Positions 4,550 to 56,762 are shown, counted from the stretch's first letter. The stretch: DNA of 64,000 nucleotides from Acidobacteriota bacterium (GCA_046726375.1 JBKPAJ010000007.1:6488-70487), one strand, 5' to 3'. Notes: generated from the sequence alone by a model not told the origin. Program-made: numbers and translations.

Positions 4550-4672
4550 CCCGCATCGGTAGCTACCGAAGGACGGAAGCACGGAGGCACCGAGCCGACG
4601 TTCGGCAGACGCGGCCGAAGGCCGTGCGCCCGGCAGTTGCCGGGCGGTCTGCCGAGCGCTGATCAATGGAGA

Positions 4673-6166
4673 TCAATCACCGGGTTGTTCCGGGATTCCG
4701 TGATTCCGTGGCCTGACAAGGCGCCGCAGCCGGCGCCAGCCGGGTAATAACGTGGTTGCGCTGAGCACGATGCCGCCACCGCTCAGCGCGATCATGACGA
4801 TGTCCCACAACGGCCTGCGGTAATACAAGAACGGAAAATCCAGACTGTGTAAGCCGTGATAGAGCCAGCGTTCCACGCGGCTCAATCGCTCTTCCTTGCG
4901 GACGATCACGCCACGCCGCGGGTCGAGGTACAACCAGGTGCGATTGGCATCTGCGTAGCGGACGCGAAGTACGGGCAGTGCGAGGTGATCATCGCGCGCG
5001 TAGTAGTAGTTGTCGTAGGTGTTCAGCCACGTCATGTCGTCAACCGCGACACCGGGCATGGCCATGTGCGCCGCGCGTTCGATCGCCTCACGCGGAAACT
5101 GTTGGAAGGCGACGCGTTCAGAGGGCACCGCGGGCACCAGCGTTCCACTGGCGGCGAGGTAGAGCGCTCCATCGAACTGAACCAGCTCAATCTCTTTGAT
5201 CGCCACATCTTCAGCCGTTGCCGCGAGCCTCGTTGCGGCGCCGCGGACGTTATCGGCTGTCAACGACGTCAGCGGCAGCGGTCCACCGGCGATGCGCTCC
5301 CGCTGCACGCGTGTTGGCGCGTTTCCAGGACTCCAACCCCAGGGACCCATTGAAAGGAGCCCGCTGAAAACCCAGGTGAGGCTCGCAGCGCCGAAGATCA
5401 ATCCGGAGTAGTGATGCCACTTCATGAGCCCGCTATAGGGCGAGCGTCTTGCGACGGTCAGACCCCACACCAGGCCCGTGATGCACATGAGGCAGCCCGC
5501 GACAGACACCCAGATGATCGTCTGCGTCCACAGCGCCGCCTGACGTCGGAACGGCGCGAAATACAACCAGTGAAGGACCGCGCCCGGGTAGGCCCATCGT
5601 CGTTCGGCCGCGGTGGTTCGCATTACGATCTCGCCGCTGCGCTGCGCCACATAGTAGTAGCTGCCGCCAGCGTCGCCGACCGCGACGCGATGCACCGGCA
5701 TCTGCGCGCGCACGCCCATCGTCCACTGGTCGGCATCCATCAACAACGCATCGTGCCGAATCGTGCCGACATGCTCAGGGATCAACGCACGCACGACAGC
5801 CACGGCGTCGTCTGCCGTCAACTCCTCGAGTAGCCGCCCGCTTTCGGCAAGCACTGAGGTCGACACACGGCCCAAAGTCAGGCGGTAGACCACGCGATCG
5901 CCGAAGGTCGTCACGCGGATGCGATCGGTGACGCGTCCGGAGGCCCGCAGGGCATCGGCGGGAGACGTTCTGATCTGGGCGATGTCGATCGGCTGCAATC
6001 GCCGCGACAACTCTTCGGCCGGGAGCGCCGGCATGCGCGCGTACATCATCACGATGCCGGAGACGAACCATGCGACGAACAGCAGGCCGGCGGCGATGCC
6101 GAGCCAACGGTGCGTGTAAACCACCGCCCGCCGCCAATCGAGCCGCGCGCGCGTTAAAACTGACAT
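4673..6166 (-). CDS. PepSY-associated TM helix domain protein
   Basis: 497 aa. N-terminus RRAVVYTHRWLGIAAGLLFVAWFVSGIVMMY and the repeated TM-plus-periplasmic-loop layout are typical of the PepSY_TM family. Confidence 0.8.
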   Translation of the reverse strand: MSVLTRARLDWRRAVVYTHRWLGIAAGLLFVAWFVSGIVMMYARMPALPAEELSRRLQPIDIAQIRTSPADALRASGRVTDRIRVTTFGDRVVYRLTLGRVSTSVLAESGRLLEELTADDAVAVVRALIPEHVGTIRHDALLMDADQWTMGVRAQMPVHRVAVGDAGGSYYYVAQRSGEIVMRTTAAERRWAYPGAVLHWLYFAPFRRQAALWTQTIIWVSVAGCLMCITGLVWGLTVARRSPYSGLMKWHHYSGLIFGAASLTWVFSGLLSMGPWGWSPGNAPTRVQRERIAGGPLPLTSLTADNVRGAATRLAATAEDVAIKEIELVQFDGALYLAASGTLVPAVPSERVAFQQFPREAIERAAHMAMPGVAVDDMTWLNTYDNYYYARDDHLALPVLRVRYADANRTWLYLDPRRGVIVRKEERLSRVERWLYHGLHSLDFPFLYYRRPLWDIVMIALSGGGIVLSATTLLPGWRRLRRLVRPRNHGIPEQPGD

Positions 6167-6701: not shown

Positions 6702-7190
6702 ATGATGTCGTTTGCCATGTGGCTCCGCAGCACCTACGTCTCGGAGCTGATTCGCTATTACCCGTGGCTGTGGCCGGTGTGCGAAACGATTCACTTCATC
6801 GGCCTCGCGCTCGTCATCGGGATCGCGGGCATGTTCGACCTGCGGCTCATGGGGTTTCTGTCGCGAATCTCGGTGTCGGCGGTGAAAGATCTCATGCCGT
6901 GGGCGGTTGCGGGTTTTGCCATGAACCTGGCGACGGGCACGGTCTTCTTTATTGGCGCGCCCGACCAATACGTGAACAACCCGGCGTGGTGGGCCAAGGT
7001 GTTTTTCATCGCGCTCGCCGGCCTCAACGCGATGGTGTTCGAGACCACCCTCGGTGCCCGTGTTCTGACGCTCGGTCCCGGTGAGAAAACGCCGGCGTCG
7101 TTCAAGATCATCGGCGCCCTGTCGCTGTTCTCGTGGTTGAGCGTGTTGTACTGGGGCCGGATGCTGCCATTCATCGGTGGCGCGTTCTAG
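6702..7190 (+). CDS. uncharacterised 4-TM membrane protein (paralog 2)
   Basis: 162 aa. CETIHFIGLALVIGIAGMFDLRLMG aligns with paralog 1 and the TM layout is the same. Confidence 0.65.
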   Translation: MMSFAMWLRSTYVSELIRYYPWLWPVCETIHFIGLALVIGIAGMFDLRLMGFLSRISVSAVKDLMPWAVAGFAMNLATGTVFFIGAPDQYVNNPAWWAKVFFIALAGLNAMVFETTLGARVLTLGPGEKTPASFKIIGALSLFSWLSVLYWGRMLPFIGGAF

Positions 7191-7192
7191 AG

Positions 7193-7675
7193 AACAGGGA
7201 GATCGGGGAGATCAGGGAGATCGGGATAACAGGGAGGTCGGAGAGATCGGGGAGAAAATCCTTCTTCCTGATCGCTCTGTCCTCCCTGTCCATCAACTCC
7301 CTGATCTCCCCGGTCTCCCTGTTCATTTGATCGGGGGGAGGGGATCACAGGGAGGTCGGAGAGATCGGGGAGAAAATTCTTGTCCCTGATCGCTCTGTCC
7401 TCCCTGTCCATCAACTCCCTGATCTCCCCGGTCTCCCTGATCATTTGATCGGGGGAGGGGATCATAGGGAGATTGGGGAGATCGAGGAGAAAATTCTTGT
7501 CCCTGATCTCTCCGTCCTCCCTGTCCATCAACTCCCTGATCTCCCCGGTCTCCCTGTTCATTGATCGAAAAGAATTCTCGAGCTCGCTGATCTCCTTGAT
7601 CTCCCTGTTATTTACCTCCTTGATCTCCCTGTTATGTTTATCACCCTGAGCGGGCCTGTTATCTCCCTCCCCGGA
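7193..7675. repeat. GGGAGATC-word repeat block: about three tandem units of 117-118 bp, each self-complementary
   Basis: Units start at about 7229, 7347 and 7464 (ACAGGGAGGTCGGAGAGATCGGGGAGAAAAT ... CCTGATCGCTCTGTCCTCCCTG ... CTCCCTGATCTCCCCGGTCTCCCTG). AGGGAGATC and GATCTCCCT words alternate. Confidence 0.9.
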
Positions 7676-8119: not shown

Positions 8120-10292
8120 CGCCGCAAGCGTTAGAGTAATTCTTCTTCTCGTCTGGCTGATCGCAAGCGGAGCTGTGTACGCACAGCCCACCGCCGGTTC
8201 CTTCATCGTCAAGGTTGCCGATCAAACCGACGCGGCGCTGCCTGGCGTCGACGTCGAACTGCAGATTGAGGGACAGCCGCCGCGAACCGGCGTGACCAAT
8301 CCTCAAGGTGAGTTTGCGTTTACGAACCTTCCGCCCGGTCGCGCCGAGCTCGTTTGCAAACTGATCAACTTTGCCACGGTGCGCCGCGACGTGGCCGTCA
8401 CGCCCGGGCCGATGGCACGCATCACCGTCGTGATGCACCTGTCGCTCAACGCCGACGTCATCGTGACCGGGCAAAGCACCTTCCGCAACATCGCCGATCT
8501 CGACAACCCGGCAGAAAATCTCGTGGGAGTTGAATCTGCGGCAAGCCAGGGCGCAATCACGGCCAGACAGCTCGAAGCGCGACCCATCATGCGGCCGGGC
8601 GAGGTCCTCGAGACCGTCCCGGGCCTGATCGTCAGTCAGCACAGCGGGGAGGGAAAGCAAATCAGTATTACCTCCGCGGCTTCAATCTCGATCACGGGAT
8701 CGACTTCGCGACGACGATCGCAGGCACGCCGATCAATATGCCGTCGCATGGGCATTTTCACGGCTATTCGGATACGAATTCGTTGATACCCGAGCTCGTG
8801 AGCGGCGTGCAATTCAAGAAGGGCCCGTATTTCGCGGAGACGGCGATTTCTCCGCCGCCGGATCCGCGAACATCAACTACGTCAATCAGCTCGCACGGCC
8901 GATCGTGAATCTCAGCGCGGGCGCTGAGGAATGGGGTCGCGTCTTTGCCGCTGCATCGCCGCGCGTGAGCAACGGGTTCTTGCTGGGCGCGATCGAGCTC
9001 AATCACAACGACGGGCCGTGGAATCGGCCGGACGATTACCGCAAAGCGAACGGCCTGCTGCGTTATACGCAAGGCGATGCGCGCAAACGGGGACGGGGCG
9101 GCGATCGTTACGAACCTCTGCGTACCTCATTGGCTACGGCCTCAATCTCTTTTCGAACTTCACCTATTTCCTGGACGATCCGGTCAACGGCGATCAGTTC
9201 GAGCAGGCGGACCGTCGGCTCACGTCGGGCGGCCGTATCACTTACAAGATGCTCGGGCGCGTGAACGGCCGCAACGTGGAAAGCCCCTTTGGTGCGCAGG
9301 TGCGTCACGACGGCATCGGCACCATCGGGCTCTACAAGACGATCAAGCGGCAGCGCCTCGCCACGACACGCGACGACGCCGTGGACCAGACAGCGCTGGC
9401 CATGTTCGGTCAGAGCGAAATCGAGTGGAGCTCGCGTCTCAGGATGACGGCTGGTCTTCGCGCCGATCTCTACCGCTTCGACGTGACGGCGAGCGACCCG
9501 GTGAATTCGGGGCGCGATGTCGAGGGTCTGGTCAGTCCGAAGTTCGGCATGGTGCTCGGGCCCTGGGCCAGCACCGAGTTTTACCTGAACGCCGGCTTTG
9601 GATTTCACAGCAACGACGCACGCGGCGCGACGATCACGCGCGACCCGCTCACCGGTGAACCTGCCGCGCGGGTGACGCCGCTGGCGCGCGCGCGCGGAGC
9701 GGAAGTGGGTTTCCGCACGGTGCGATTGCGCGGCCTGCAAACGACGCTGTCGTTGTGGCGGCTCGATCTCGACTCGGAGTTGCTGTACGTGGGCGACATC
9801 GGAACGACAACCGCGACGCCGCCAACCTCGCGTTACGGCGTCGAGTTGGCGAACTATGCGCGTCTGAATAGATGGCTCACGCTCGATGCCGACATCTCGT
9901 TTTCACGCGCGCGCTTCACCGGCGGCGAAGTGGAAGGAGGTTATGCGCCCGGCGCGGTGGATCGCGTAATTTCCGCTGGGATCACCGCTGAACCGGTCCA
10001 TCGTTGGTTCGGCAGCATGCGCCTGCGGCACTTTGGTCCACGTGCGCTCGTGGAAGACGGCAGCGTGCGATCGGACCAGACCACGATCGTGAACGGCGAA
10101 GTCGGACTTCGGCTCTGGCCGCGGGCGCGGGTGACGGTGGAAGGGTTCAACCTGTTCGACGCGAAGGTGAGCGACATCGATTATTTCTACACGTCGCGAT
10201 TGCCCGGTGAGCCGGCCGAAGGCGTGGACGACATTCACACGCACCCGGCCCTGCCGCGTACGGCGAGAGTGGCGTTGCAGCTGACGTTTTGA
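8088..10292 (+). pseudogene. TonB-dependent receptor (CarboxypepD_reg N-domain + plug + barrel) disrupted by at least three frame changes
   Basis: Track pieces 8088-8786, 8905-9264 and 8931-10292, plus an unlisted frame segment, read as one receptor: ...GEVLETVPGLIVSQHSGEGK | ANQYYLRGFNLDHGIDFATTIAGTPINMPSHGHFHGYSD...KKGPYFAE | GDFSAAGSANINYVNQLARPIVNLSAGAEEW...LLRYTQGDAR | AYLIGYGLNLFSNFTYFLDDPVNGDQFEQ ... RVALQLTF. Frame changes lie near 8655-8658, 8840-8842 and within 9085-9122. Confidence 0.75.
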
Positions 10293-10302
10293 CGGCAGAA
10301 CT

Positions 10303-10395
10303 CTTCCAAGTCGTTCCTTGAGTTCAAAGTTCAAAGTTATTGGCAAAGTGTGTGAGTTAACTTTGAACTTGGAACTTGGAACTTGTAACTTTCGG
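10303..10395. repeat. GTTCAAAGTTC / GAACTTGGAAC word hairpin at a convergent gene junction
   Basis: Left arm cttccaagtcgttccttgagttcaaagttcaaagtt. Right arm aactttgaacttggaacttggaacttgtaac. The right arm overlaps the last codons of the MFS gene. Confidence 0.8.
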
Positions 10396-20777: not shown

Positions 20778-22432
20778 AGCGGCTGATCGCGGACCTAAGG
20801 GTGCGCGCTACATCTGTGTTGTGGGCTACATGTGCGTCGCGGGCTACATTTGTGTCATGGGCGTCTTTTTCGTGGGCGACCCGGCCGTCATCTTCTTCAT
20901 TTGCAGCGCGGCCGTCATTTTCTTCTGTAGCGCCCACTTTTGGGTCCGCGGTGCTTGTCCTCGCGCTCGCGACACCGGCCTATTCGCAGATCGATCTGAG
21001 CGGCGAATGGGCGCCGCGCTTTTACGAGGATCAACCGGAACGCGTCCCGGGGCCCGATCTCGGCGATTACCTTGGCATTCCCATCAGCGACGCCGCGCGC
21101 TGGCGGGCTGAAGCATGGAGCGCCTCGATCATGACGCTGCCGGAATGGCAGTGCCGCCCGCACTCTGCCGACTACATCTGGCGCGGCCCGTCGCCGGTGG
21201 TCATCTCGAAGGAAGTCGATCCCGTGTCGCGCGAGATCACGAGCTTCAAACTCGAATGGCTACGATCGGTCGAGCGGGCCATCTATCTCGATGGCCGAAA
21301 TCCGCCGTCTGAAAACGCGCCTCACACGTGGGCCGGCTTTTCCGTCGGCCGGTGGACCGGCGACATCCTCACGGTTACAACCACGCACCTGAAAGAAGGC
21401 TACGTTCGTCGCAACGGCTTGCCCAGGAGCGATCAGGCGACGCTCACCGAGCATTTCATCCGCAACGGCGACGTGCTGACCGTTGTGACGATCGTGACCG
21501 ATCCGGTGTACCTCACTGAACCGTTCATCCGCACCACCGACTACGAGCTCGATCTCAAGCAGCAAAACCCTCCCTATCCGTGTCACGTTGTCGAAGAAAT
21601 CGATCGGCCGAAAGGGATGGTGCCGCACATTGCACCGGGCACGAATCAGTCGGTGCAGGAGTTTGCCACGAAGCACAACGTGCCCGCCGAGGCTGCGCGC
21701 GGTGGCGCGGCGACGATGTATCCGGTGCGCGTGACGGCCGGCAAGACGAGCGCCGAAACGCGGACGCCTCTAGGTGCCGGTGTTCCGGTGGACTTGACGG
21801 GGCAATGGGTTTCGGTCGTAACCGAAGATTGGCGCTGGCGTATGGTGACGCCACCGAAAGGCGATTACGCGAGCGTCCCGCTCAATCCAGAGGGCGTGAA
21901 GATCGTCAACGCCTGGGATCCGGCGAAAGACGAAGCGGCCGGGCAGCAATGTCGCGCCTACGGAGCAGGTGGCATCATGCGCATGCCCGGTCAGATTCGC
22001 ATCGCCTGGCAAGACGATCGAACACTCAAAGTAGACACAGAAGCCGGATCGCAAACACGCGTGTTCCACTTTGGCGGTGCTGCGCTTGGCGACACGCAGG
22101 CGGGTTGGCAGGGTGTATCGAGTGCACAGTGGCAGTATGCGGGTCGGCCCGCTCGCAGTGGCGGAGCACGTCCCGCTGGCGGCTCGTTGCGCGTCACCAC
22201 TACCCGCTTGTTGCCAGGCTACCTGAGAAAGAACGGCGTGCCGTACGGCGCTAACGCGCGCGTGACCGAATACTTGAATCGCGTGGACGAACCCAATGGC
22301 GATTCGTGGTTGATCGTCACGACGCTGGTCGAGGATCCGCAATACCTCGCGCAACGATTTGTCACGAGCTCGCATTTCAAGAAGGTCGCGGACGGATCGC
22401 CGTGGAATCCAATGCCATGTTCGGCGAAGTGA
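20774..22432 (+). CDS. secreted fusion of the type A and type B unknown domains (A-B protein), with an in-frame element in its signal-peptide region
   Basis: ATGA overlap with the previous gene. Residues ~75-330 align with 15181..16047 (LPEWQCRPH, PYPCHVVEE). Residues ~345-552 align with 17162..17977 (TEDWRWRMVTPPKGD, QQCRAYGAGG, NPMPCSAK). Confidence 0.75.
   Translation: MKRLIADLRVRATSVLWATCASRATFVSWASFSWATRPSSSSFAARPSFSSVAPTFGSAVLVLALATPAYSQIDLSGEWAPRFYEDQPERVPGPDLGDYLGIPISDAARWRAEAWSASIMTLPEWQCRPHSADYIWRGPSPVVISKEVDPVSREITSFKLEWLRSVERAIYLDGRNPPSENAPHTWAGFSVGRWTGDILTVTTTHLKEGYVRRNGLPRSDQATLTEHFIRNGDVLTVVTIVTDPVYLTEPFIRTTDYELDLKQQNPPYPCHVVEEIDRPKGMVPHIAPGTNQSVQEFATKHNVPAEAARGGAATMYPVRVTAGKTSAETRTPLGAGVPVDLTGQWVSVVTEDWRWRMVTPPKGDYASVPLNPEGVKIVNAWDPAKDEAAGQQCRAYGAGGIMRMPGQIRIAWQDDRTLKVDTEAGSQTRVFHFGGAALGDTQAGWQGVSSAQWQYAGRPARSGGARPAGGSLRVTTTRLLPGYLRKNGVPYGANARVTEYLNRVDEPNGDSWLIVTTLVEDPQYLAQRFVTSSHFKKVADGSPWNPMPCSAK
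20789..20950. mobile_element. 162-bp palindromic (MITE/REP-like) element inserted in frame in the coding region
   Basis: Terminal inverted repeats GCGGACCTAAGGGTGCGCGCTACA ... TGTAGCGCCCACTTTTGGGTCCGCG. Internal tandem words. Excising it restores a canonical signal peptide (see findings). Confidence 0.6.
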
Positions 22433-26015: not shown

Positions 26016-26222
26016 TCTGGCGATGTCGCGACGTGGTGATGTGGCGATGTGATGTATCGATGGGGTGAGGTGGTGGGGTGTCTGTCGATGTTGCGATGTA
26101 ATGTGTCGATGTAATCACATCACCACATCGTCAGATAACATCATTCCATCGATAGACACATCGCGACATCGACACATCTCAACATCACATCGCCACATCA
26201 CCAGCTCGCCACATCGACACTT
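26016..26222. repeat. GATGTGGCGATGT-word long hairpin at a convergent junction
   Basis: 21-bp perfect inverted repeat: ggtgatgtggcgatgtgatgt (26035-26055) and acatcacatcgccacatcacc (26182-26202). The arms are built from GATGT/CGATG words. Confidence 0.85.
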
Positions 26223-45785: not shown

Positions 45786-46003
45786 GGTGTGATGTAGCGA
45801 TGTGGTGACCTGGCGATGTGGCGATGTGAGGCATTGTAGGTGCCGATGTTGCGGTGTGTCTGTCGATGTGGCGATGGGTCGCGCTACATCTCCACATCTC
45901 CACATCACCACATCACATCATTACATCGCCAGACACATCGCTACATCTTTCCATCAGCACATGACATCGCCACATCACCACGTCGCGACATCGCCACATC
46001 GAA
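45786..46003. repeat. second copy of the GATGTGGCGATGT-word long hairpin, again at a convergent junction
   Basis: gatgtggcgatgt (45815-45827) pairs with acatcgccacatc (45988-46000). The left arm is G/T words, the right arm C/A words, and the centre is ...GGTCGCGCTACATCTCC... Confidence 0.85.
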
Positions 46004-46010
46004 GTGGTCT

Positions 46011-48077
46011 CTATAAACCCGTGCGCGTCGTCGTTGGCGGGTCGGGCAGCTTGAACACAATCAACTCAGCCGGGAAGTTGGGCCCCGCGATCGCCACTGC
46101 GATGTACTGCTTGCCGTTGACCATATAGGTCATCGGCGAACCCGTTTGCGGCCCGGGCATCGCCACCGCACCCGCGTCCGCACCGGTCGCCTTGTCGTAG
46201 GCGCGCAGCAACGCGCCGCGTTGTCCGTTCGCCAGCGTGTTGAACCCGCCTTCGCCGGCGATCAGCAACGTTTTCGTGACCAGCGTGCCGATGCGGCCCG
46301 TACGGCCGGTGCGTGCAATGTTCAGCCCCTTGAGCGCCGGATGGTTCCTGATCGCATCCGGCGTATCGCCATGTGCGATCTGCCACACCAGATCGCCTTT
46401 GTTGAGATCGAAGGCGGTGATGCGGCCATACGGCGGCTTCACGAGCGGAAGGCCTTGCACGTTCAACGCAGCAGCGCCGCCGCCGCCACCTCCGCCGCCT
46501 GCTCCGCCGCGGCCGCCACCAGCGGGCGCGGGCGCTGGCGCCGGCTTGGCGTTCGGATCCCGCGCGCGGCCCGAGATGAAGTTCATATCGGAGCGCTCCG
46601 CATCGTTCACCAAACCGAGCGCGCTGATGTTCGTGTTCGAGAACACGTAGAGCATCTTCGTTTCGGGATCGAGCGACCCGCCTTGCCAGTTGGCACCGCC
46701 AGTGTTGCTCGGCAGCATGAGCGTGGCAAGCGGACCTTCCCACTTGCTTACGACCGGCGGCGTAAACAACGGACCAAGCTTGTAGCGCGACACCAACTTC
46801 ACGGCTTCGGCGCGCAACTCCGGTGTGAAGTCGATCAGATCGTCGATCGAAACGCCTTGCCGATCGAACGGTGGCGGCTTGGTGACAAACGGCTGTGTCG
46901 GTGCGTACCATTCACCAGGCACATCGCCCTTGGGAACGGGGCGTTCTTCGATCGGCCACACCGGCTGACCCGTGACGCGATCCAGCACGTAGATCCAGCC
47001 CTGCTTCGTGGGCTGCGCGAGCGCTTTGATCGCCTTGCCATTGACCGTAATGTCGGTGAGGATCGGCGCGCACGGAATATCCCAGTCCCAGATGCCGTGA
47101 TGAACGGTCTGGTAGTGCCACTTCCGCTTGCCGGTTTTCAGATCGAGCGCGACGATGCTCTCGCCGAAAAGTCCGTCACCCGGTCGATGGCCTCCGTAGT
47201 AATCGCCGGTCGGCAGCTCGACACCCAAATACACGGTGTTGAGCTCCTCGTCCACGCTCATCTGCGCCCATACGCCGGTGTTGCCGGTGTTCGACCACGA
47301 GTCCTCTTGCCATGTGTCGTTGCCGAATTCTCCCGGCCGCGGCACGGTGTGGAAAATCCAGAGCCGCTTGCCCGTTCGTACGTCCAAGCCGCGCACATAT
47401 CCCATCGCGGCGCGGCGGCTCTTCGGGGCCGATCCTTCGATGTGCGCCGCGCCAACGAGAATGACATCCTTCGAAATGATCGGCGCCGCGTGGAGACCGA
47501 TTTCCCCGTTTTCGGCATCGATCACTTGATCGTTATCGAGCTTCAAATCGACGATGCCGTTCTTTCCAAAGGTCGGCACTCTGTCGCCGGTCTTCGCGTC
47601 GAGCGCGATGAGCTGATAACCGGGCGTCACATAAACCACGCGCGCCTCTTTGCCGTCGCTCCAGTAGGCAAGGCCGCGGCCGGATAACTGCCGCGGTGCG
47701 GCTTCGCCGCGCTTGCCCTCATTGAGGCTGTGCATCCAAAGCATCTCGCCCGTGGTCGCATCGAGCGCGACGACGGCGCGTCGACTCCCGGCCGTCAGAT
47801 AGAGCACGCCGTTCACCATCAGCGGCGTGGTTTGAAAATTGAACTCCGGCCGTGGACCGAGCGACTCGGTCCTGAACCTGAACGCCACTTCCAGTTGGTC
47901 GAAATTCTGCGCGCTGATTTGATCGAGCGGTGAGTAGCGCGTATTCGCAAGGTCGGCGCCGTACATGCGCCACTCGCCAACAGGTGCGCCCGTCTGTCCG
48001 TCGGCGGCGACGGTGCAGCAGACGAGCGCCACTACCCAGAGTCCCAGATGCCGGATTGAACGAGGAGTGTGTTTCAT
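46011..48077 (-). CDS. soluble PQQ-dependent dehydrogenase (8-bladed propeller)
   Basis: From ATG 48077: MKHTPRSIRHLGLWVVALVCCTVAADG (signal peptide), WRMYGADLANTRYSPLDQI, TPLMVNGVLYL, ALDATTGEMLW ... Confidence 0.85.
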   Translation of the reverse strand: MKHTPRSIRHLGLWVVALVCCTVAADGQTGAPVGEWRMYGADLANTRYSPLDQISAQNFDQLEVAFRFRTESLGPRPEFNFQTTPLMVNGVLYLTAGSRRAVVALDATTGEMLWMHSLNEGKRGEAAPRQLSGRGLAYWSDGKEARVVYVTPGYQLIALDAKTGDRVPTFGKNGIVDLKLDNDQVIDAENGEIGLHAAPIISKDVILVGAAHIEGSAPKSRRAAMGYVRGLDVRTGKRLWIFHTVPRPGEFGNDTWQEDSWSNTGNTGVWAQMSVDEELNTVYLGVELPTGDYYGGHRPGDGLFGESIVALDLKTGKRKWHYQTVHHGIWDWDIPCAPILTDITVNGKAIKALAQPTKQGWIYVLDRVTGQPVWPIEERPVPKGDVPGEWYAPTQPFVTKPPPFDRQGVSIDDLIDFTPELRAEAVKLVSRYKLGPLFTPPVVSKWEGPLATLMLPSNTGGANWQGGSLDPETKMLYVFSNTNISALGLVNDAERSDMNFISGRARDPNAKPAPAPAPAGGGRGGAGGGGGGGGAAALNVQGLPLVKPPYGRITAFDLNKGDLVWQIAHGDTPDAIRNHPALKGLNIARTGRTGRIGTLVTKTLLIAGEGGFNTLANGQRGALLRAYDKATGADAGAVAMPGPQTGSPMTYMVNGKQYIAVAIAGPNFPAELIVFKLPDPPTTTRTGL

Positions 48078-48122
48078 AGGCTCAGCCCGCGTCAGCCTAC
48101 TATAATTTGGGCCGCCATTCAG

Positions 48123-49163
48123 ATGCATCCCGACCTGCAGGAGGCGATCGACTTCCATATCGCCGTCCTGGCCGAAGGCAGTAAAGCACTCGTCGGTTAC
48201 GACACGGCCAAAGCGATCGCCAACGTCGTGCTGCTCTCCGAGATTCCGACGACTTACGACAAACGCGATGAGCGTCAGGTGAACGCCGGCAATCTGCTGC
48301 TGCGCGGCGTCCCTGGCGTCGGCAAGACCTTTTTCGGCGTGATTCTCGCCGCCATCAGCGACGCGAAGTTCGCCCGCCTGCAGGGCCGGGCCGACCTCCA
48401 GCCGACGGAAGTCGTCGGCTTCCAGATGATTAATCCCGCCACTGGCGAGCTCGTCACGGAGTTCGGGCCGTTGGCCTCGGCCGAAGTGATCCTGCTCGAC
48501 GAGATCAATCGCATTCCGCTCAAGTCGCAGAGCGCGTTTCTCGAAGGGTTGCAGGATCGAACCGTCACTGTCGGCTCGACGACCTACGATTTGCCGGCAT
48601 TCAGCTTTGCGATTGCCACGATGAATCCCGTCGAGCTCGGCCAGGGCACGTTTCCGCTCTCCGAAGCCGCAACCGATCGGTTTGCGGCAATCGTGAACAT
48701 CGGCTACCTGCCGGCCGAGGAAGAAGAAAAGCTCGTCGCCTTCGATTTCAAGCGAGTTCGCCTCAAACCGCTGCTGGCCAAGCAGCGCATCATTCAGCTA
48801 CGCGGCGCGATCTCCGAGCACGTATTTCTTCACGAGCGACTCGGCCGCTATATTCAGCGGCTCGTCGCGGCGACGCGTCCCTACAATCCTGAGACCGACT
48901 GGAACCAGCACTCGCCATCGGCGCTGGTTGAACGCGGCGTCGATCTCGGCGCCTCCCCGCGCGCGATCATCGTGTGGAGCCGGTTGGCAAAAGTATGGGC
49001 CTTGCTCCAGCATCGGCGCGCCGAGGTGTACCCGGAAGATATTCAGGATCTCGCGCCGTTCGTGCTGAGTCACCGGATCTGGCTGGGACCGCATGCGGCA
49101 AGTCACGGGTTGACGACGGAAGCGGTGATCCGTGATGTGATCGACGAGGTGGCGATACCGTGA
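48123..49163 (+). CDS. moxR: MoxR-type AAA+ ATPase
   Basis: From ATG 48123. LLRGVPGVGKT (Walker A), VILLDEINR (Walker B), ATMNPVE, SPRA. Confidence 0.9.
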   Translation: MHPDLQEAIDFHIAVLAEGSKALVGYDTAKAIANVVLLSEIPTTYDKRDERQVNAGNLLLRGVPGVGKTFFGVILAAISDAKFARLQGRADLQPTEVVGFQMINPATGELVTEFGPLASAEVILLDEINRIPLKSQSAFLEGLQDRTVTVGSTTYDLPAFSFAIATMNPVELGQGTFPLSEAATDRFAAIVNIGYLPAEEEEKLVAFDFKRVRLKPLLAKQRIIQLRGAISEHVFLHERLGRYIQRLVAATRPYNPETDWNQHSPSALVERGVDLGASPRAIIVWSRLAKVWALLQHRRAEVYPEDIQDLAPFVLSHRIWLGPHAASHGLTTEAVIRDVIDEVAIP

Positions 49164-49173
49164 ATACGCGCGA

Positions 49174-49275
49174 GAATTCAAAATGGGAAATGCAAAATGC
49201 CAAAAGACTCAAAGCATAGGCGCACCATGGCGCGTTCGTTTGTTTTGAATGTTGCATTTGTCATTTTGCATTGCG
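49174..49275. repeat. AT-rich word inverted repeats straddling the next gene start
   Basis: aatgcaaaatg (49189-49199, contains ATG 49197) pairs with cattttgcatt (49262-49272). ttcaaaa (49177-49183) pairs with ttttgaa (49243-49249). Confidence 0.6.
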
Positions 49276-50384
49276 TTGCTGCGAGCTCGGCTGCGCAGCC
49301 GGCGCGCGAGCAGGAGATTGATCCTCTCCGCTGCTGGTGGCGGACATCCGAAGGCGCCATTACCGTCGGCCAGCCATTTTCGGCGACGCTGACGTGCGCC
49401 GTGCTTGACACAGCGAACGTCCGCGTTGTCCCCGATGAAACGCAGCTGGCAGCCGAGACGATTCAGCTGGCGCCTTTCGAGCTGATTGGCGGTGATCATC
49501 CCGCGGAGCTGAGGAGCGGCGTGCGGCGGTTCTTCCAATACGAGTACCGGCTGCGCCTCATCGATCCGGCGGCGATTGGCAAGGATGTGCCGCTACCGCG
49601 GCTCGTCATCCACTATCGCGTCGAAAGCCGCGTACAGTCGCAGGCGTCCGAAGGACGCGATCTGACGTACGTGATGCCGCTTGTCGCCGTGCGCGTGATG
49701 TCGCTCGTTCCGACGGATGCCTCCGACATCCGCGACGCGTCACACGAACCGTTCGGGGCGATTGAGGCGTTGCGCTTTCGCGCGCGTATGCTCGAGATCG
49801 CGGCGCTGACGCTTGGCATTCTCGGCGGCGTGATTCTCGCCGCCGCGATCGTGCGCGCGTTAGTCGCGCCGCGCCGCCGCACAACGGGCGCCGTCGTGCG
49901 GCTGTCGGATGGCGCGATCTTGCGCGCGGTGGCGTCGGAACTGGCCGCGGTGCAGAGCGAAAGCCGCGGCGGGTGGAATCCGTCGCTGCTGAATCGCGCG
50001 CTTGCCGCCTTGCGCGTGGCCGCCGCCTACGCGCTCGGGCGGCACGTGCCGCATCGCACTCTTGCGGCTGGCGCCGAAACGCCCGAAGGCCGCTTCGTTG
50101 TCGCGCGCGGCCTGATTAGAAAGCGCCGATCCACCGTGACGAGCCCGATTACAGCTGCCGACGTCAAACGTGAGCTCGATCAATTACCGCTGACGGCGTC
50201 TCACGAGCGCCGCACACGCCTCGAAACGCTGCACACGTCGCTGCAGACGCTGACGCACGCGCAGTACTCGGCCAAGCCGGCAGAACCCGCGGACGAGGCT
50301 GTGACATCGGCGCTGCAGGTCGTCCATCAGCTGCGTCGCGAACGCCGCTGGTTTACCTGGCTGACGCCGTCGCCATCCCGATGA
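49197..50384 (+). CDS. membrane-anchored hypothetical protein (weakly BatD-like), occupies the slot where DUF58 normally follows MoxR
   Basis: Signal peptide (the start could be ATG 49227, MARSFVLNVAFVILHCVAASSAAQ), beta-rich periplasmic part, one TM (IAALTLGILGGVILAAAIV), helical cytoplasmic tail. ATGA overlap with the next gene. Confidence 0.6.
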   Translation: MPKDSKHRRTMARSFVLNVAFVILHCVAASSAAQPAREQEIDPLRCWWRTSEGAITVGQPFSATLTCAVLDTANVRVVPDETQLAAETIQLAPFELIGGDHPAELRSGVRRFFQYEYRLRLIDPAAIGKDVPLPRLVIHYRVESRVQSQASEGRDLTYVMPLVAVRVMSLVPTDASDIRDASHEPFGAIEALRFRARMLEIAALTLGILGGVILAAAIVRALVAPRRRTTGAVVRLSDGAILRAVASELAAVQSESRGGWNPSLLNRALAALRVAAAYALGRHVPHRTLAAGAETPEGRFVVARGLIRKRRSTVTSPITAADVKRELDQLPLTASHERRTRLETLHTSLQTLTHAQYSAKPAEPADEAVTSALQVVHQLRRERRWFTWLTPSPSR

Positions 50385-51481
50385 CCTTCATCGCGCGACT
50401 CGAGCAGCTGCTGCGGCAACAGGCGGCAGACTGGGATAACGTGAGCATCGCCGCGCTGCGTTACTGGCACCGCGATGAAGCGCGTCTCTTCCTCACGGCA
50501 GTCATTGGCACGCTCCTGTTGCTCCTGACCATCCGCCTGTTGCTGTCGCGCCGGCGCGGTCGCGGGGCCGGCCTACCCGCGCTCCTGCGGCAATCGGAGT
50601 CGCCTCGGCTTGCGTGGCTTCGTCACCTCCCGCTGGGGCTGTTTGTCGCCGGTCTGCCGTTTGCGCTCCTGGCGATTGCCGATCCGTACGCGGCGCTTGT
50701 ACAGGAGGACACCACGTTTCCCGGACGTCGCATCAGTCTAATGATCGACGCGTCCACCAGCATGTCCACGTCGTTCAAGACCGACACGCTCAAGACGCGC
50801 TCTCCGAACGGACCCGCCTTCTACACCACGGTCGCTGCGGCCGAACAGTTCGTGCAGTTGCGCCGCAAGGGCCGCCACCAGGACTTGATTGCGCTCGTCG
50901 AGTTCGGCAACCAGGCGTACGTGATCACGCCGTTCACCAACGACTACGACAACATTCTGTTGAGCATCAATCTGATCAGCGATCCGGTGGAGTTCTCGCT
51001 CTTTCCCGATCGCGGGACGATCATCGCGCACGCCGTGGAGCAGAGCATCGGGTTGTTCAAGGCGTTTGATTTTCTGGAGGCCTCCGGCAACCTCATGGTG
51101 ATCTTCACCGACGGTGAAGACACGCGTGCGGAGTTTCAGGGCGTCAGCCTCGACGAGATCCTTCAGAGCGCGGTGGACAACAGGATTCCGTTGTACTTCG
51201 TGCGGACCAACTACGACAAGGCGCTCGGCGACATCATCCCCGACGCGCTCTGGAAAAACGCGGTCGAAAAAACCGGCGGCAAGTTCTATGCGGCAAGCGA
51301 CGAGGCGAGCTTGATGCGCGCGATTCGCGACATCGACCGGCTGGCCGCGGGCACGATCCGCGTCAAGCGGTACGCGACGCAGAAAGCGGAGTTCGCGCCC
51401 TTCGCGCTGATTGCGGCCGCGTTCTGGTGCGGTGCGGCCGGTCTCAAACTGTCGAGCGGCAGATTTCAGACGCTGCCGTAG
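50381..51481 (+). CDS. VWA domain membrane protein (BatA-like)
   Basis: N-terminal TMs, then RRISLMIDASTSMS (MIDAS DxSxS) ... VIFTDGEDT, and a C-terminal TM. Confidence 0.8.
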   Translation: MTFIARLEQLLRQQAADWDNVSIAALRYWHRDEARLFLTAVIGTLLLLLTIRLLLSRRRGRGAGLPALLRQSESPRLAWLRHLPLGLFVAGLPFALLAIADPYAALVQEDTTFPGRRISLMIDASTSMSTSFKTDTLKTRSPNGPAFYTTVAAAEQFVQLRRKGRHQDLIALVEFGNQAYVITPFTNDYDNILLSINLISDPVEFSLFPDRGTIIAHAVEQSIGLFKAFDFLEASGNLMVIFTDGEDTRAEFQGVSLDEILQSAVDNRIPLYFVRTNYDKALGDIIPDALWKNAVEKTGGKFYAASDEASLMRAIRDIDRLAAGTIRVKRYATQKAEFAPFALIAAAFWCGAAGLKLSSGRFQTLP

Positions 51482-52215
51482 AGATAACAGGGAGATCAGC
51501 GAGATCAGGGAGAGCGATAACAGGGAGATCAGGGAGATCAGGGAGCGATAACAGGGAGATCAGGGAGATCAGGGAGATCAGCGAGATCGGGAGAAATAAC
51601 AGGGAGATCAGGGAGGTCAGGGAGAAATATCAGGGAGAAGTAACAGGGAGATCGGGGAGATCAAGGAGCGATAACAGGGAGATCAGGGAGATCAGGGAGA
51701 TCAGCGAGATCGGGAGAAATAACAGGGAGATCAGGGAGGTCAGGGAGAAATATCAGGGAGAAATAACAGGGAGATCGGGGAGATCAGGGAGCGCGCGATA
51801 AGAGGGAGACCAGGGAGATCAGGGAGATCAGCGAGATCGGGAGAAATAACAGGGACATCAGGGAGATCAGGGAGAAATATCAGGGAGAGCAGGGAGAGCA
51901 GGGAGAGCAGGGGAAGATCAGGGCGGAACAATCGGGAGATCGGGGACACCGAGGAGAGATAACAGGTAGGTCGGGTAGATCGCGAGTGATGAGAAGAACT
52001 GTTTTGTTCTCCCTGATCTCCCTGATCTCCCTGTTTTTCTCCCTGGTCTCCCTGATCTCCCTGTTAATTCTCCCTGGTCTCCCTGATCTCCCTGTTAATT
52101 CTCCCGGATCTCCCTGATCTCCCTCCCGGATCTCCCTGATCTCCCTGTTAAATTCTCCCGGATCTCCCTGATCTCCCTGTTAATTCTCCATGATCTCCCT
52201 GATCTCCTTGTGAAC
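51482..52215. repeat. about 0.73-kb GGGAGATC-word element: long G-rich left arm with ~124-bp tandem units, C-rich complementary right arm
   Basis: Left arm ~51482-51990 carries dozens of AGGGAGATC-type words; the unit gcgataacagggagatcagggagatcagggagatcagcgagatcggg... repeats at ~51545 and ~51669. The centre has agaac-tgtttt-gttct near 51995. The right arm ~52005-52215 is GATCTCCCT words. Confidence 0.9.
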
Positions 52216-52231
52216 TTACGAGGATAAATCG

Positions 52232-52861
52232 ATGAAACAACTGACGATTGGCGTGATGGTCGCCCTGGTGTTCTTTGCTGCGTCGGCCTTTGCCTTCAGA
52301 GAGGCGCGGCGCCTGCGCGCAGACGCGGACGGACGCGAGCGCCTGGCCACGCTTCGCCATGTCGGATTGGACAACGCAAAATCCGAATACTGGCGCGGTG
52401 AGTACGACCGCGTCATTTCTGTATCTGCGCCCGCGGATCGCGATCCGGATCTGGAGCGGCTGTTGCTCTCCGCCAACGCCGCGTTCCGAAAGACGCAACG
52501 CGAGGCGCCACCGCGTCAGGCGCAGCTGCAGCAGCTCGATGCGGTACTGCAGTCCTACGCGTCGGTGTTGAAATCGGGACCATTTGTTGCTGACGCCGCT
52601 TACAACTACGAGTTTGTCGCGCGGGTGCGGGAGGCGATCAGCCGCGGGAAACCGCCGGCCTCGTCGGCGGCGCGAGCATCGGGGCCATCCGAGCCGCGTG
52701 CCGTCGATCTTCCGGCCGGACCGACGATCCACGGCCGTCCGGGCGGACCACCGCCGGGCACGAAGGGCGAGGAGTTCGAGGTCATCGCGCCGATGGAGTT
52801 TGGGGATCGTGAGGCGCAGCCTGAACCCAACGCCGGAGGCAAGCCGCTGCGCAAGGGCTGA
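52232..52861 (+). CDS. membrane-anchored hypothetical protein
   Basis: 209 aa. N-terminal TM (IGVMVALVFFAASAFAF), helical middle, Pro/Gly-rich tail. Confidence 0.6.
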   Translation: MKQLTIGVMVALVFFAASAFAFREARRLRADADGRERLATLRHVGLDNAKSEYWRGEYDRVISVSAPADRDPDLERLLLSANAAFRKTQREAPPRQAQLQQLDAVLQSYASVLKSGPFVADAAYNYEFVARVREAISRGKPPASSAARASGPSEPRAVDLPAGPTIHGRPGGPPPGTKGEEFEVIAPMEFGDREAQPEPNAGGKPLRKG

Positions 52862-52866
52862 CGATC

Positions 52867-53955
52867 GTGGTCTTTCGAGAGCCCGACTACCTGTGGTTCG
52901 TGATCGTGCCGCTGCTGCTGGTCGTGCTGTGCGTCTGGCGGTTCGTGCAGCGGCGGCGTGACGTTCGACAGTTGGTCTCGCGGCGCATTGTGCCCTCGCG
53001 ACAGCGCTTCGGCTTCGTTGGCGACCTGCCATTCTGGTTGGCCATTGCCGTCGCCAGTGCGCTATTGATCATCGCGGTCGCTAGACCCGCCGCGCCGACG
53101 AACACATTACGCCGCGCCGGTGTCGACGTCGTCATTCTGCAGGACGCGTCGGCCTCCATGCGCGTGAGCGACGTCGCCGGCGCGCAGGATCGCTGGAGCC
53201 GATCGATGCGGTTTCTGCGCGGTCTCGGCGATGCCTTGAGCTGGCGCGAGGACCGCATTGCCCTGGCGGCTTTCGCGCACATCGCGGCGCCGCAGGTGCG
53301 TCTTACGCGCGATCCGAACACGCTGTTTTTCTTTCTGGATCATCTGGAGCACCAGGCGCCGTTTCGGCTCGAAGACGCGACCACGTGGGACACCAATCTG
53401 GAGCTCGGCGTGTATTGGGGCTTGCGCCTGATCGACAAGGACGAAGAGATTCATGGCCGATCGCCAAACGCCAAGCTGTTCGTGCTGTTGTCGGATGGCG
53501 AGGCATGGAGCGGGGAAGTGGCGAAGTCTGTGGAGCTGGCGAGGGACCGCAGTATCCCTGTGTTCGTGATCGGTGTCGGATCGCTGAGCGGCGGGCGTAT
53601 GCCGGTGGTGCCCGAGCTCGACCAGGAGACCCCGCCCGACGAACGCCCGCCGCTGGTGTCGCGCCTCGATCGGCCGGCGCTGCAGCGGATTGCGTCGGCC
53701 GGTGGCGGCCGCTACTTCGAGCTCGATCGCGTGCCCGATCGCGATATCGCCAACGCCATCGTGGATACGGGGCGCCGCCTCGCGCCCGCCCTCGGGTCGG
53801 TGGAGGTGCACACCGATCTTTACTGGTGGGTCTTGTGCGCCGCCGGTATCGCAGCGGCTGCAGGGTTGCTGTTTATCCGCGAGGCGGCGGCACTCGCTTT
53901 TCTCCTCGCCGGCGCCGGCGCTGCCGCCCTCGTCCTGCAGCGCGCGCTCTGGTAG
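52867..53955 (+). CDS. VWA domain membrane protein (BatB-like)
   Basis: N-terminal TMs, VVILQDASASMRVSD (MIDAS), VLLSDGEAW, C-terminal TMs. Confidence 0.8.
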   Translation: MVFREPDYLWFVIVPLLLVVLCVWRFVQRRRDVRQLVSRRIVPSRQRFGFVGDLPFWLAIAVASALLIIAVARPAAPTNTLRRAGVDVVILQDASASMRVSDVAGAQDRWSRSMRFLRGLGDALSWREDRIALAAFAHIAAPQVRLTRDPNTLFFFLDHLEHQAPFRLEDATTWDTNLELGVYWGLRLIDKDEEIHGRSPNAKLFVLLSDGEAWSGEVAKSVELARDRSIPVFVIGVGSLSGGRMPVVPELDQETPPDERPPLVSRLDRPALQRIASAGGGRYFELDRVPDRDIANAIVDTGRRLAPALGSVEVHTDLYWWVLCAAGIAAAAGLLFIREAAALAFLLAGAGAAALVLQRALW

Positions 53956-54687: not shown

Positions 54688-54782
54688 GTACGAGTTCTAG
54701 GTTCCTAGGTTCCCAAGTTCATAGGTTCTGGAGCGTCGGAACCATGGAACTTCGGAACCTGGGAACTTCGAAACCTCGAAAC
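54688..54782. repeat. GTTCC(T/C)A(G/A)GTTC-word hairpin filling a convergent junction
   Basis: Left arm gttctaggttcctaggttcccaagttcataggttctgg, loop agcgtcgg, right arm aaccatggaacttcggaacctgggaacttcgaaacctcgaaac. Confidence 0.8.
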
Positions 54783-54790
54783 GCGCTGGC

Positions 54791-55363: not shown

Positions 55364-55709
55364 GGTCGCTCCGTTCGTCTGGAGCGGCAGGCATGGCGGA
55401 GGATGCGCGGCTGAGGCGCACGCAAGTTGAGCGCCAACATCGTCAACGTGGTTTACGGCGACGATTGCTGCAACGGCGGCGCGTTCGCTGACTCGAACCG
55501 TTCTCGCGCGGAGACATCCAGCGCCCACGACACCCGGCAACTGTCGCGATTCGGCGACGGTCGTCGCCGCGATTTTTTCGTGCAGCTTGCGGATAAACCG
55601 TTCCGAAACGGCTGGCTCGAACCGACCGGCGCAAAACGCATCGCGCCACTATCTGTCCGTGAGCTGTCTCACTAGGTTACCGGCCCACTGGAGTCGCCGA
55701 TTGCGAACG

Positions 55710-55837
55710 GTGAATGTTGAGATTTGGAAATCTCGAGATTTGGAGCAGATCTGGAGATGTGAAAATCTTGAGATTTGACGATCTAGAGATCTCCAAATTC
55801 TCTCCAAATCTCCACATCACCAAATCTCCATATTCAC
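55710..55837. repeat. GAGATTTGGA-word hairpin with terminal inverted repeats GTGAAT(G/A)T(T/G)GAGATTTGG
   Basis: Left end gtgaatgttgagatttggaaatctcgagatttggag. Right end ctccaaatctccacatcaccaaatctccatattcac. Confidence 0.8.
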
Positions 55838-55862: not shown

Positions 55863-56762
55863 CTAGCTGATGAACGTGCCTCGACGCAGGTCTTCCATCG
55901 CCTGCCGGATCTCCGCGCGCGTGTTCATCACGATGGGGCCGTGCCATGCAACCGGTTCTTCGATCGGTTTGCCCGACACGAGCAGGAATCTGATGCCTTC
56001 GTCTCCCGCCTGAACAACAACTTCGTCGCCGCGATCGAAGAGCACGAGCGATCGATTGCCCACGTACGCCGCATCGGCAACCGAGTTGTTGCTGACCACC
56101 TCCGTTTTTACCTCACGCGGATCGGACGCGTCGCGAAAGCTTCCCGAGCCGGCGAAGACGTACGCGAAGGCGTGGTTTGTGGTTTCAACCGCGAGCCTCT
56201 TCTTCTTGCCGGGCGGTACGAAGATGTCGAGATAGCGCGGGTTCGCCGCTACCCCTTCGACCGGACCCCTCTTGCCCCAGAACTCTCCCGTGATCACCCG
56301 CGCGATGGTGCCATCGTCATCCGTGACTTCGGGAATGTCGACGCCTTTGATGTCCTGATAACGTGGCGCCGTCATCTTCAACGACGAAGGCAAATTCGCC
56401 CACAACTGAAAGCCGTGCATTCGGCCGCGCTGATTGCCTTTTGGCATCTCCTGATGCAGGATGCCGCGGCCGGCGGTCATCCATTGCACGTCGCCCGGAC
56501 CGAGGCTGCCGCGGTTGCCGAGGCTGTCGCCGTGATCGACGGTGCCGGCGAGCACATAGGTGATGGTCTCGATGCCGCGATGCGGATGCCACGGGAATCC
56601 AGCAAGGTAGTCGGCTGGATTGTCGTTGCGGAAATCGTCGAGCAGGAGAAACGGGTCGTACAAATCGGTATCACCGAAACCGAACGCACGATGCAGCTTC
56701 ACGCCGGCGCCTTCCATGGTGGGCTGCGATTGAATAACGTGCTTGACAGGTCGAATTGACAT
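55863..56762 (-). CDS. pirin family protein
   Basis: 299 aa. GFPWHPHRGIETITYVLAG ... DVQWMTAGRGILHQEMP is the pirin bicupin signature. Confidence 0.9.
   Translation of the reverse strand: MSIRPVKHVIQSQPTMEGAGVKLHRAFGFGDTDLYDPFLLLDDFRNDNPADYLAGFPWHPHRGIETITYVLAGTVDHGDSLGNRGSLGPGDVQWMTAGRGILHQEMPKGNQRGRMHGFQLWANLPSSLKMTAPRYQDIKGVDIPEVTDDDGTIARVITGEFWGKRGPVEGVAANPRYLDIFVPPGKKKRLAVETTNHAFAYVFAGSGSFRDASDPREVKTEVVSNNSVADAAYVGNRSLVLFDRGDEVVVQAGDEGIRFLLVSGKPIEEPVAWHGPIVMNTRAEIRQAMEDLRRGTFIS

Follow-up and report, generated by a model that had tools for sequence, protein, structure and literature searches.

The closest described analogue of the element reported here is the GGGNATC repeat of Xanthomonas and Nostoc. 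These heptamers are dispersed and mostly intergenic, favour the first 50 bp behind a stop codon, where the G-rich strand is the sense strand, are rare between divergent genes and mostly transcribed, and come in arrays of 2 to 26 units; each Xanthomonas genome holds 70-75 inverted array pairs able to form stem-loops (Rehm et al., 2015, PMC4692102). Hairpins behind stop codons are also known from within operons. In malE-malF and other operons a stable stem-loop placed directly 3′ of the upstream stop guards the segment before it against 3′-5′ exonucleases (PMC5927463), and REP325, a repetitive extragenic palindromic (REP) element, is both a partial terminator and a stabiliser within the yjdMN operon (bioRxiv 10.64898/2026.03.23.713779). 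Here we describe a repeat element that fills the spacer between two same-strand genes of a MoxR/VWA operon in an Acidobacteriota bacterium (GCA_046726375.1), found in a stretch of 64,000 nucleotides (JBKPAJ010000007.1:6488-70487), the whole of which is called the window below. The spacer is very probably one copy, amplified in place, of a palindromic repeat that is dispersed and specific to the lineage.

A spacer of mirrored word arrays

The VWA gene at 50381-51481 stops with TAG at 51479-51481 and the next same-strand ATG is at 52232, giving a 750-nt spacer at 51482-52231, with the limits and length given by the initial annotation, which had been made from the sequence of the window. The spacer is non-coding; no frame reads through it, each of the six holding 7-15 stops.

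Tandem Repeats Finder (TRF) reports for the left half a period of 9 nt (44.6 copies, 51488-51923) and a higher-order unit of 123 bp (3.1 copies, 94% identity, 51504-51888), and for the right half, at 52007-52211, periods of 9 nt (19.6 copies) and 31 nt (6.9 copies). The initial annotation had given about 124 bp and about 3.5 copies for the tandem unit. With up to one mismatch, the word AGGGAGATC occurs 69 times in the window vs 12.8 ± 3.5 times in shuffled sequence, and none of 100 shuffles reached 69. The spacer accounts for 46 of these matches (31 forward, then 15 reverse), the region 7196-7668 for 17, and six are scattered. Word polarity in the spacer is strict, with 36 GGGAG and no CTCCC on the left and 19 CTCCC and no GGGAG on the right, which bears out the earlier description of one word type followed by its complement. 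GATC, formerly ascribed to every word, is present in most but not in every one; its 37 sites (49 per kb, vs 9.7 per kb in the remaining window) do make an approximately 5-fold enrichment.

Parsed unit by unit, the spacer consists of about 14 left arms, a degenerate centre with a small tip hairpin (AGAAC 51996-52000, loop TGTTT, GTTCT 52006-52010), and about 7 mirror-image right arms. Left units start with ATAAC and carry one to five words, mostly three, as in ATAAC-AGGGAGATC-AGGGAGATC-AGGGAG-AA/CG; right units read TTAAC-AGGGAGATC-AGGGAGAYC-MGGGAG-AA on the opposite strand. The left side measures about 480 nt and the right about 205 nt, an inequality due to the presence of the 123-bp tandem duplication in the left arm only. 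Judged from this parsing, the 9-mer by itself is not the building block of the spacer; that role belongs to an arm of 31 nt composed of three words. The initial annotation had taken the 9-nt word as the unit; the words are indeed present, but the arm, the dispersed family to which it belongs and the copy at 7190-7670 had been missed.

The linkers between units are 4-5 nt long and near-identical, with no unique spacers of the kind found in a CRISPR array. Rfam covariance models gave no match at the gathering threshold in the whole window. A site scan of 51482-52231 found neither a sigma-70-like promoter nor a U-tract terminator, and the right ends read ...CTCCCTGTG(CTC), without the T-run of an intrinsic terminator.

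A palindrome dispersed in Acidobacteriota

The typical left unit of the spacer is the left half of a palindrome that recurs in other genomes. The family unit is about 57 bp long and reads (GAG)CAC-AGGGAGATC-RGGGAGATC-RGGGAG, then a 6-10-nt A/T-rich tip, then the mirror image, each arm being three G-rich 9-nt words with a conserved CAC cap. We scanned one genome per species with the 18-mer AGGGAGATCAGGGAGATC, collecting 8-kb tiles, and counts per genome are lower bounds: at least 18 tiles in MFD02840.bin.1.220, at least 8 in GB_EKS_MAG_00025, at least 4 each in MFD09206.bin.2.2, MFD02242.bin.1.229 and Vicinamibacterales M3-S bin.87, at least 2 in MFD09206.bin.1.2 and at least 1 in MFD09267.bin.2.138. 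The palindrome is dispersed, over dozens of these tiles, in at least seven Acidobacteriota genomes of Vicinamibacterales type, and it is from Vicinamibacterales that the named homologues of the 209-aa protein encoded downstream of the spacer come. The words are accordingly not confined to the spacer locus, since they recur in a second window copy and in repeated matches in related metagenome-assembled genomes (MAGs). The remaining AGGGAGATCAGGGAGATC matches are single ones in unrelated taxa. The one inspected, from Polyangiaceae, is a coding collagen-like repeat, and the others, including those of Streptomyces, are probably coding or chance. A 26-nt arm used against a viral collection gave one match, a chance one to a collagen-like Gly-X-Y coding repeat.

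About 20 copies compared have the same palindrome in common, with forward words before reverse words (the G-rich arm first) in every copy; because the element is a palindrome, this order is identical on both strands. The 74 ends compared give the consensus GRGAKCAC followed by AGGGAG, with AC at -2/-1 in 71-72 of the 74 and nothing conserved further out. An arm profile built from the other genomes only, the window being left out, found in the 64 kb ten left (E<1e-5) and seven right arms of the spacer, more at 7190-7635, and nothing else. Target-site duplications of 4 bp or more were absent from 17 complete elements at offsets 0-13, where a single 3-bp match at one offset is at chance level. 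Ten open reading frames (ORFs) flanked by elements in the 8-kb tiles include oxidoreductases, a hydrolase and TPR proteins; no arm pair 0.4-4 kb apart in the examined tiles encloses a transposase. In the literature we found nothing specific on the occurrence of this repeat in Acidobacteria or Vicinamibacter.

Gene positions around the elements were taken from a crude gene caller based on GC content at third codon positions. By these calls a gene's stop codon lies no more than 30 nt from an edge in about 30 of 48 clusters, and copies typically lie 5-30 nt after a stop codon, in many intergenic gaps. Convergent gene pairs are enriched, many of them with both stops 5-18 nt away, and in co-directional gaps the element is closer to the upstream stop than to the downstream start in 12 of 14 cases. 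One sugar-oxidation gene cluster, with genes for a GFO/IDH/MocA oxidoreductase, a 3-keto-disaccharide hydrolase, a TPR protein and a GMC oxidoreductase, carries elements in successive gaps in three species. Its hydrolase orthologues are 80% identical in amino acids and 58% identical at four-fold sites; the arms on both sides of the hydrolase gene are near consensus, and loops, arm numbers and inserts differ. Such near-consensus arms may mean that the words are under constraint, or else that they are continually turned over and homogenised.

The second family member in the window (7190-7670) is nested: between outer left and outer right arms lie three units of 118 bp, each one a complete hairpin. 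Its start is 5 nt downstream of the TAG of ORF 6702-7190, and its fold has z = -10.4 against shuffles. The independent same-species MAG GCA_046729875.1 has it too, with the unit number unchanged; of 580 aligned columns, 8 are mismatches and 4 contain gaps. A Logan contig of SRR33633148 (L206 1064-1089; L numbers are our labels for tiles and contigs) encodes the identical 162-aa protein of 6702-7190. In place of TAG and the element, the gene there has a TAA stop and behind it a small unrelated hairpin (CTCAA-TTCAC-TTGAG), and the contig ends 23 nt after the stop; it suggests an element-free allele of this second locus, on a contig too short to define the boundaries.

Several variants were seen in the scan. 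In MFD02242.bin.1.229 an 875-bp array lies between convergent genes (L078 6224-7098), with 18.4 copies of a 47-bp unit at 94% identity. Each unit combines a left arm with a 20-nt linker that does not vary among the 18 units; there is no right arm, and the array superficially resembles CRISPR. For this array as for the spacer, a CRISPR reading was rejected because linkers are identical between units. A composite subfamily (Table 1) has AGGGAGATC arms around a 150-200-bp GC-rich insert, with segments shared between copies, and represents either another element nested within the hairpin tip or a longer form resembling MITEs (miniature inverted-repeat transposable elements). Scytonema sp. PCC 10023 (L048 3380-3480) has the same nonamer as (GATGAGGAG)x3 followed by (TCTCCCTGA)x5, and a Verrucomicrobiae MAG (L109 291-320) has a lone (AGGGAGATC)x3-4 run.

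History of the operon junction

The junction of the VWA and 209-aa genes was compared among relatives. In a relative with 54% protein identity the two genes overlap by 4 nt (ATGA). A metagenome scan with the 209-aa protein, used for ancestral spacer length, gave relatives at up to 58% identity only; these 67 more distant relatives have a modal spacer of -4, most spacers being 20 nt or shorter, and word arrays in none. In the 68% relative the spacer is 67 nt long, and a single left arm (TGAgtgCACAGGGAGATCGGGGATATCAGGGAGATCC) follows the stop directly. The element is present in the 85% and 89% relatives, whose contigs terminate within it, and two samples with an identical 212-aa protein have right arms of about 130 vs about 65 nt. 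Occupancy of this site by the element extends down to the 68% level of protein identity. Whether or not the element is present, the VWA gene stops at the same codon position, which places the element directly 3′ of the native stop.

This comparison shows an ancestral state of two genes overlapping or nearly touching. The element was thus acquired within a sub-lineage of an ancestrally tightly coupled operon, has since grown and shrunk, and was probably also lost. The initial annotation's view of one operon split by the element agrees with the relatives' genes, which overlap by 4 nt or lie about 5-20 nt apart. Its view of an expanding repeat fits the family-level evidence, lengths differing greatly between close relatives, and the comparison of copy number across strains that it proposed finds variation both in the right arms just mentioned and within the species, as indels of 10 and 22 nt.

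Folding, growth and proposed role

The spacer RNA has a minimum free energy (MFE) of -412 kcal/mol vs -276 ± 8.7 in shuffles (z = -15.8). The very long imperfect hairpin foreseen by the initial annotation agrees with this value, but not in its claim that the whole spacer folds: because the arms are unequal, the right arm can pair with no more than a portion of the left.

We propose that one copy became fixed behind the VWA stop codon and would have grown, by slipped-strand mispairing and unequal recombination among the 9-, 31- and 123-nt periodicities, to the present arm numbers; nested insertion into the hairpin tip possibly contributed. Unit junctions are identical (GGGAGAA-A-TAAC on the left, and on the right its near mirror GGGAGAA-T-TAAC), which fits duplication of the 31-nt arms in tandem within the left and within the right side, whether or not a nested tip insertion came first. 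The 123-bp repeat, confined to the left, is a plain tandem duplication.

In the operon transcript the element would fold into a very long imperfect stem-loop. By analogy with the intra-operon REPs of Escherichia coli this would shield the moxR-VWA1 segment, upstream of it, against 3′ exonucleases. Read-through would be attenuated or processed as well, and the near-continuous duplex of about 200 bp would, we infer, be a substrate of RNase III. The ancestral translational coupling of VWA1 and the 209-aa gene would be abolished, the latter keeping its own Shine-Dalgarno (SD) sequence GAGGA, and expression of the 209-aa/VWA2 half would then differ in level and probably be lower. Taken as a whole, the explanation that we prefer and consider probable is that of an amplified REP-like palindrome, situated after a stop codon, that uncouples the operon halves; its functional part is put forward more tentatively, as a possibility short of an even chance suggested by the E. 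coli precedents. The role in mRNA stability or insulation named by the initial annotation fits at the level of the family, where for RNA it is likewise suggested by analogy.

Several observations weigh against this explanation. By gene calls, a 91%-identical relative has a spacer of only 24 nt, so the element is dispensable for the operon. The unequal arms leave about 270 nt of G-rich RNA without a partner. The arms exhibit no compensatory covariation (86.7% of cells paired vs 86.0 ± 0.6 in shuffles), and thus give no sign of selection for pairing rather than for the words themselves; the outer four flank positions co-vary at the subfamily level only. No transposase was seen, all ten element-flanked ORFs being ordinary metabolic or TPR genes, and there are no target-site duplications to point to a route of dispersal. 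Finally, the role at the RNA level is drawn from analogy.

A wider reading, which we hold to be rather unlikely, would make word hairpins after stops a general, heritable and expandable "polarity dial" in Vicinamibacterales, other forms of which may include those of Xanthomonas, Nostoc, Gemmatimonadales and Polyangia. The words would be recognition sites for a conserved single-stranded-DNA- or RNA-binding protein that propagates the elements and reads them out, candidates being a domesticated Y1 transposase or a GGA-motif binder, and arm number would shift by slippage on short time-scales, tuning the expression ratio of operon halves. If this were true, the at least six other window arrays with different words would make up a system and not one repeat family. 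The conservation of the words beyond neutral expectation raises the question of what recognises or propagates them. The junction itself offers a natural series (4-nt overlap, 24-nt spacer, 67-nt half element, spacers of at least 200 nt, 750 nt) that can be used to ask how post-stop hairpin repeats alter operon polarity.

Alternative explanations

The array or its inverted layout might have come from repeat mis-assembly or from a fold-back chimera of long reads, the latter being a documented artefact (PMC12870357). In the independent same-species MAG GCA_046729875.1, with flanks 99.2-99.97% identical to the window and identical flanking proteins, the locus is split over two short-read contigs, the upstream-side one having one 123-bp unit instead of three and stopping in the right arm; this is the collapse in short-read assemblies of which the initial annotation had warned, and contigs of other relatives likewise end within the element. 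However, the other contig (L001) runs from within the left arm via the loop and right arm into the downstream gene, reproducing 51599-52231 with 1 substitution and indels of 10 nt (about one word) and 22 nt. The flanks are different genes in correct operon order, so this is not a fold-back of one sequence; moreover, the second locus at 7190-7670 is reproduced intact in that MAG, and the same architecture occurs in many genomes. An artefact is extremely improbable in our view. The element and its inverted layout exist in the organism, and the exact number of 123-bp units in the window, which depends on assembly, is uncertain. Such arrays break or collapse short-read assemblies of soil Acidobacteriota, and are open to confusion with CRISPR-like arrays or coding repeats.

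Different functions, or none, must be weighed against the uncoupling hairpin. The left arm holds 38 GGAG cores and about 270 nt of it have no partner, and its unpaired G-rich words (ACAGGGA / UCAGGGA, AGGGAG) might form a titration device, sponging ribosomes through their anti-SD or a GGA-binder of CsrA type; ACAGGGA fits the ACA-R-GGA core of the CsrA consensus obtained by systematic evolution of ligands by exponential enrichment (SELEX). GATC sites, enriched 5-fold, might likewise titrate a Dam-like methylase or a SeqA-like protein. We see only a slim chance of this, as typical family members are symmetric, fully paired 57-bp hairpins with nothing free to sponge, the words are equally conserved on both arms, the SD-like cores have no start codons after them (and AGGGAG is a moderate SD only), the GATC background is already high at 9.7 per kb, and the closest analogue, the GGGAATC of Xanthomonas, is without GATC and without SD. 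A G-quadruplex on the G-rich strand, in DNA or RNA, could instead be the functional structure; there are 41 GGG tracts in the left arm, and GGGNATC repeats, at the same post-stop position, form G-quadruplexes in vitro (PMC4692102). Yet arms typically have three G-tracts and not four, linkers between arms exceed 7 nt, the canonical motif (loops of up to 7 nt) occurs once per strand in the 750-nt spacer, and the complementary C-rich arm beside every G-rich arm favours duplex; we consider a quadruplex improbable, and the relevant structure here looks like a hairpin rather than a quadruplex. Roles in anti-SD binding, methylase titration or G-quadruplex formation found no support. Harder to set aside, though still unlikely, is a purely selfish or neutral repeat that leaves downstream transcription and translation unchanged, with which a close relative almost without spacer, the free variation in length between close strains, and the same words behind many unrelated genes would agree. 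Against it, once a structure of -412 kcal/mol replaces a 4-nt overlap, translational coupling at the least must be lost; across species the words are conserved well beyond neutral expectation, and elements are kept at orthologous gaps in three species. The neutral explanation overlaps with the origin part of the preferred one, an amplified REP-like palindrome after a stop codon, and differs from it on consequence only.

Other features of the locus and window

Table 1. Coordinates of the spacer components, neighboring genes and related arrays. Positions are those of the window unless an L label is given; strand "." where none applies.
Feature	Position	Strand	Basis or remark
Upstream VWA-domain gene, 366 aa	50381..51481	+	Pfam VWA_2/VWA; TAG 2 nt before first arm unit
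Left G-rich arm array, ~14 tandem units	51484..51958	+	Unit decomposition, TRF, profile from other genomes
123-bp tandem duplication x3.1, 94%	51504..51888	+	TRF; segment collapsed in alternative contig L002
Centre: degenerate innermost left unit, hairpin tip, innermost right unit	51959..52037	.	Sequence, decomposition, MFE structure
Right C-rich arm array, ~6 more units (7 with innermost)	52038..52214	+	Decomposition, TRF, 7 minus-strand profile matches E<1e-5
Short leader of downstream gene	52215..52231	+	Shine-Dalgarno GAGGA 52220-52224 just beyond last arm
Downstream operon gene, 209 aa	52232..52861	+	Gene order conserved in relatives
Second family member, nested	7190..7670	.	Word matches, z = -10.4 fold, arm profile
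Further word-foldback arrays	4568-4710, 10318-10395, 26018-26220, 45791-46002, 49175-49272, 54693-54785, 55710-55837		
Composite-subfamily copies	L075 947-1179, 3025-3264; L059 5186-5384, 7222-7450; L103 3872-4088; L004 6899-7063		
Sugar-oxidation cluster loci	L073 1144-3468; L075/L059; L112		

The 209-aa protein (52232..52861) has no Pfam or NCBIfam match, and its gene is followed by a second VWA gene at 52867-53955. A gene for a pyrroloquinoline quinone (PQQ)-dependent dehydrogenase at 46011-48158(-) (Pfam PF01011, E = 3e-185) divergently adjoins the operon MoxR / 395-aa / VWA / 209-aa / VWA (46011-53955 together), an adjacency also kept in the 54% relative (L120). The gene order is reminiscent of mxaRSACKL, accessory genes of methanol dehydrogenase; none of the NCBIfam models reached its cut-off.

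At least six further arrays in the window have the same design, that is, words and then their reverse complements beside a stop codon, with different words. Those at 45791-46002, which abuts the stop of the PQQ-dehydrogenase gene, and 26018-26220 have 8-mers of GGCGATGT type and then the reverse complement ACATCGCC. The array at 55710-55837, about 25 nt from the stop of a pirin-like gene (55863-56762(-)), has GAGATTTGG words followed by CCAAATCTC words in 58-nt arms that are 76% complementary; because the same pair is found in another Acidobacteriota MAG (L062 2130-2255), it represents a second dispersed word family. A CTAGGTTC/GGAACC foldback (54693-54785) comes directly after a peroxiredoxin stop, and an AGTTCAA/TTGAACT foldback (10318-10395) after a stop at 10290. 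At 4568-4710, CGGAAGCA/TTCCGTG words flank a GC-rich inner hairpin, and AAATGCA/TGCATTT words (49175-49272) separate the MoxR gene from the operon gene that follows, the right arm apparently entering the 5′ end of that ORF. Counted over the tiles, inverted short-word array pairs other than those of AGGGAGATC number 11 in 375 kb of Acidobacteriota vs 5 over 538 kb from other taxa, these five coming from Nostoc, Gemmatimonadales, Polyangia and Patescibacteria, a comparison that is indicative only as the tiles had been selected for the AGGGAGATC family.

Two small repeats were also noted in passing. An 18-nt unit GCTACATCTGTGTCGTGG is repeated 3.1 times at 20807-20862. The same-species MAG has a 60-bp GC-rich palindromic insert CACGCGCC...GGCGCGTG (L001 3960-4019) that is absent from the window at 55569/55570, a presence/absence polymorphism of another small hairpin element.

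Comparison with known repeat systems

With the GGGNATC repeats the element shares short G-rich tandem words (GGGAATC vs GGGAGATCA), dispersal, position after stops, inverted pairs and a variable unit number. The unit here is however the 9-nt nonamer (C)AGGGAGAT(C) and not a 7-nt heptamer, and the modal arm has three G-tracts, whereas theirs prefer four units, the canonical G-quadruplex motif. In the present family the inverted pair is the rule, with conserved CAC/GTG caps that make it a defined palindrome, and amplification is hierarchical (31, 47, 118 and 123 nt), reaching 0.75-0.9 kb; it also belongs to another phylum. Little-studied G-rich tandem repeats of 6-9 nt, mainly known from Xanthomonas and Nostoc, are in this way extended to another phylum.

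REPs, the bacterial interspersed mosaic elements (BIMEs) built from them and REPINs (PMC3116915, PMC3733652) are likewise dispersed extragenic palindromes at gene 3′ ends and within operons, occur singly or in tandem or nested clusters, make no target-site duplication and persist in a lineage, and their terminus often abuts or supplies a stop codon. Unlike them, the present family has no GTAG or CGTC tag at a fixed position among 74 ends, and its arms are internally repetitive, with clusters that are [L]n-loop-[R]m stacks and not alternating REPs; nor was a REP-associated tyrosine transposase (RAYT), as in REP/REPIN-RAYT systems, seen within the 8-kb tiles and the 64-kb window. The intra-operon REPs of E. 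coli (malE-malF; REP325 in yjdMN) agree in being hairpins between co-directional operon genes directly after the upstream stop, but have a demonstrated function where ours is inferred, and the structure here is 10-20 times longer.

MITEs resemble the family in their terminal inverted repeats, which here have arms of 27-35 nt and in MFD02840 also surround the 150-200-bp GC-rich insert, and differ from it in that the family elements are without target-site duplication. The BrickBuilt MITE of Porphyromonas gingivalis (PMC4596501) is also a dispersed intergenic element, with a variable-copy tandem minisatellite between small inverted-repeat ends; it has a 23-nt direct-repeat core and promoters, in contrast to the mirrored word arrays found here, in which there is no promoter-like site. 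The Foldback (FB) and Galileo elements of Drosophila (PMC3573991, PMC4079207) have long inverted ends of short tandem subrepeats, highly variable in length, and differ in being eukaryotic and of kilobase scale, some with a transposase. They are the best architectural analogy for the 750-bp copy, no homology being implied. The spacer element is REP/REPIN-like and stands outside any one named family, an extension of a known bacterial repeat type and not a new regulatory device.

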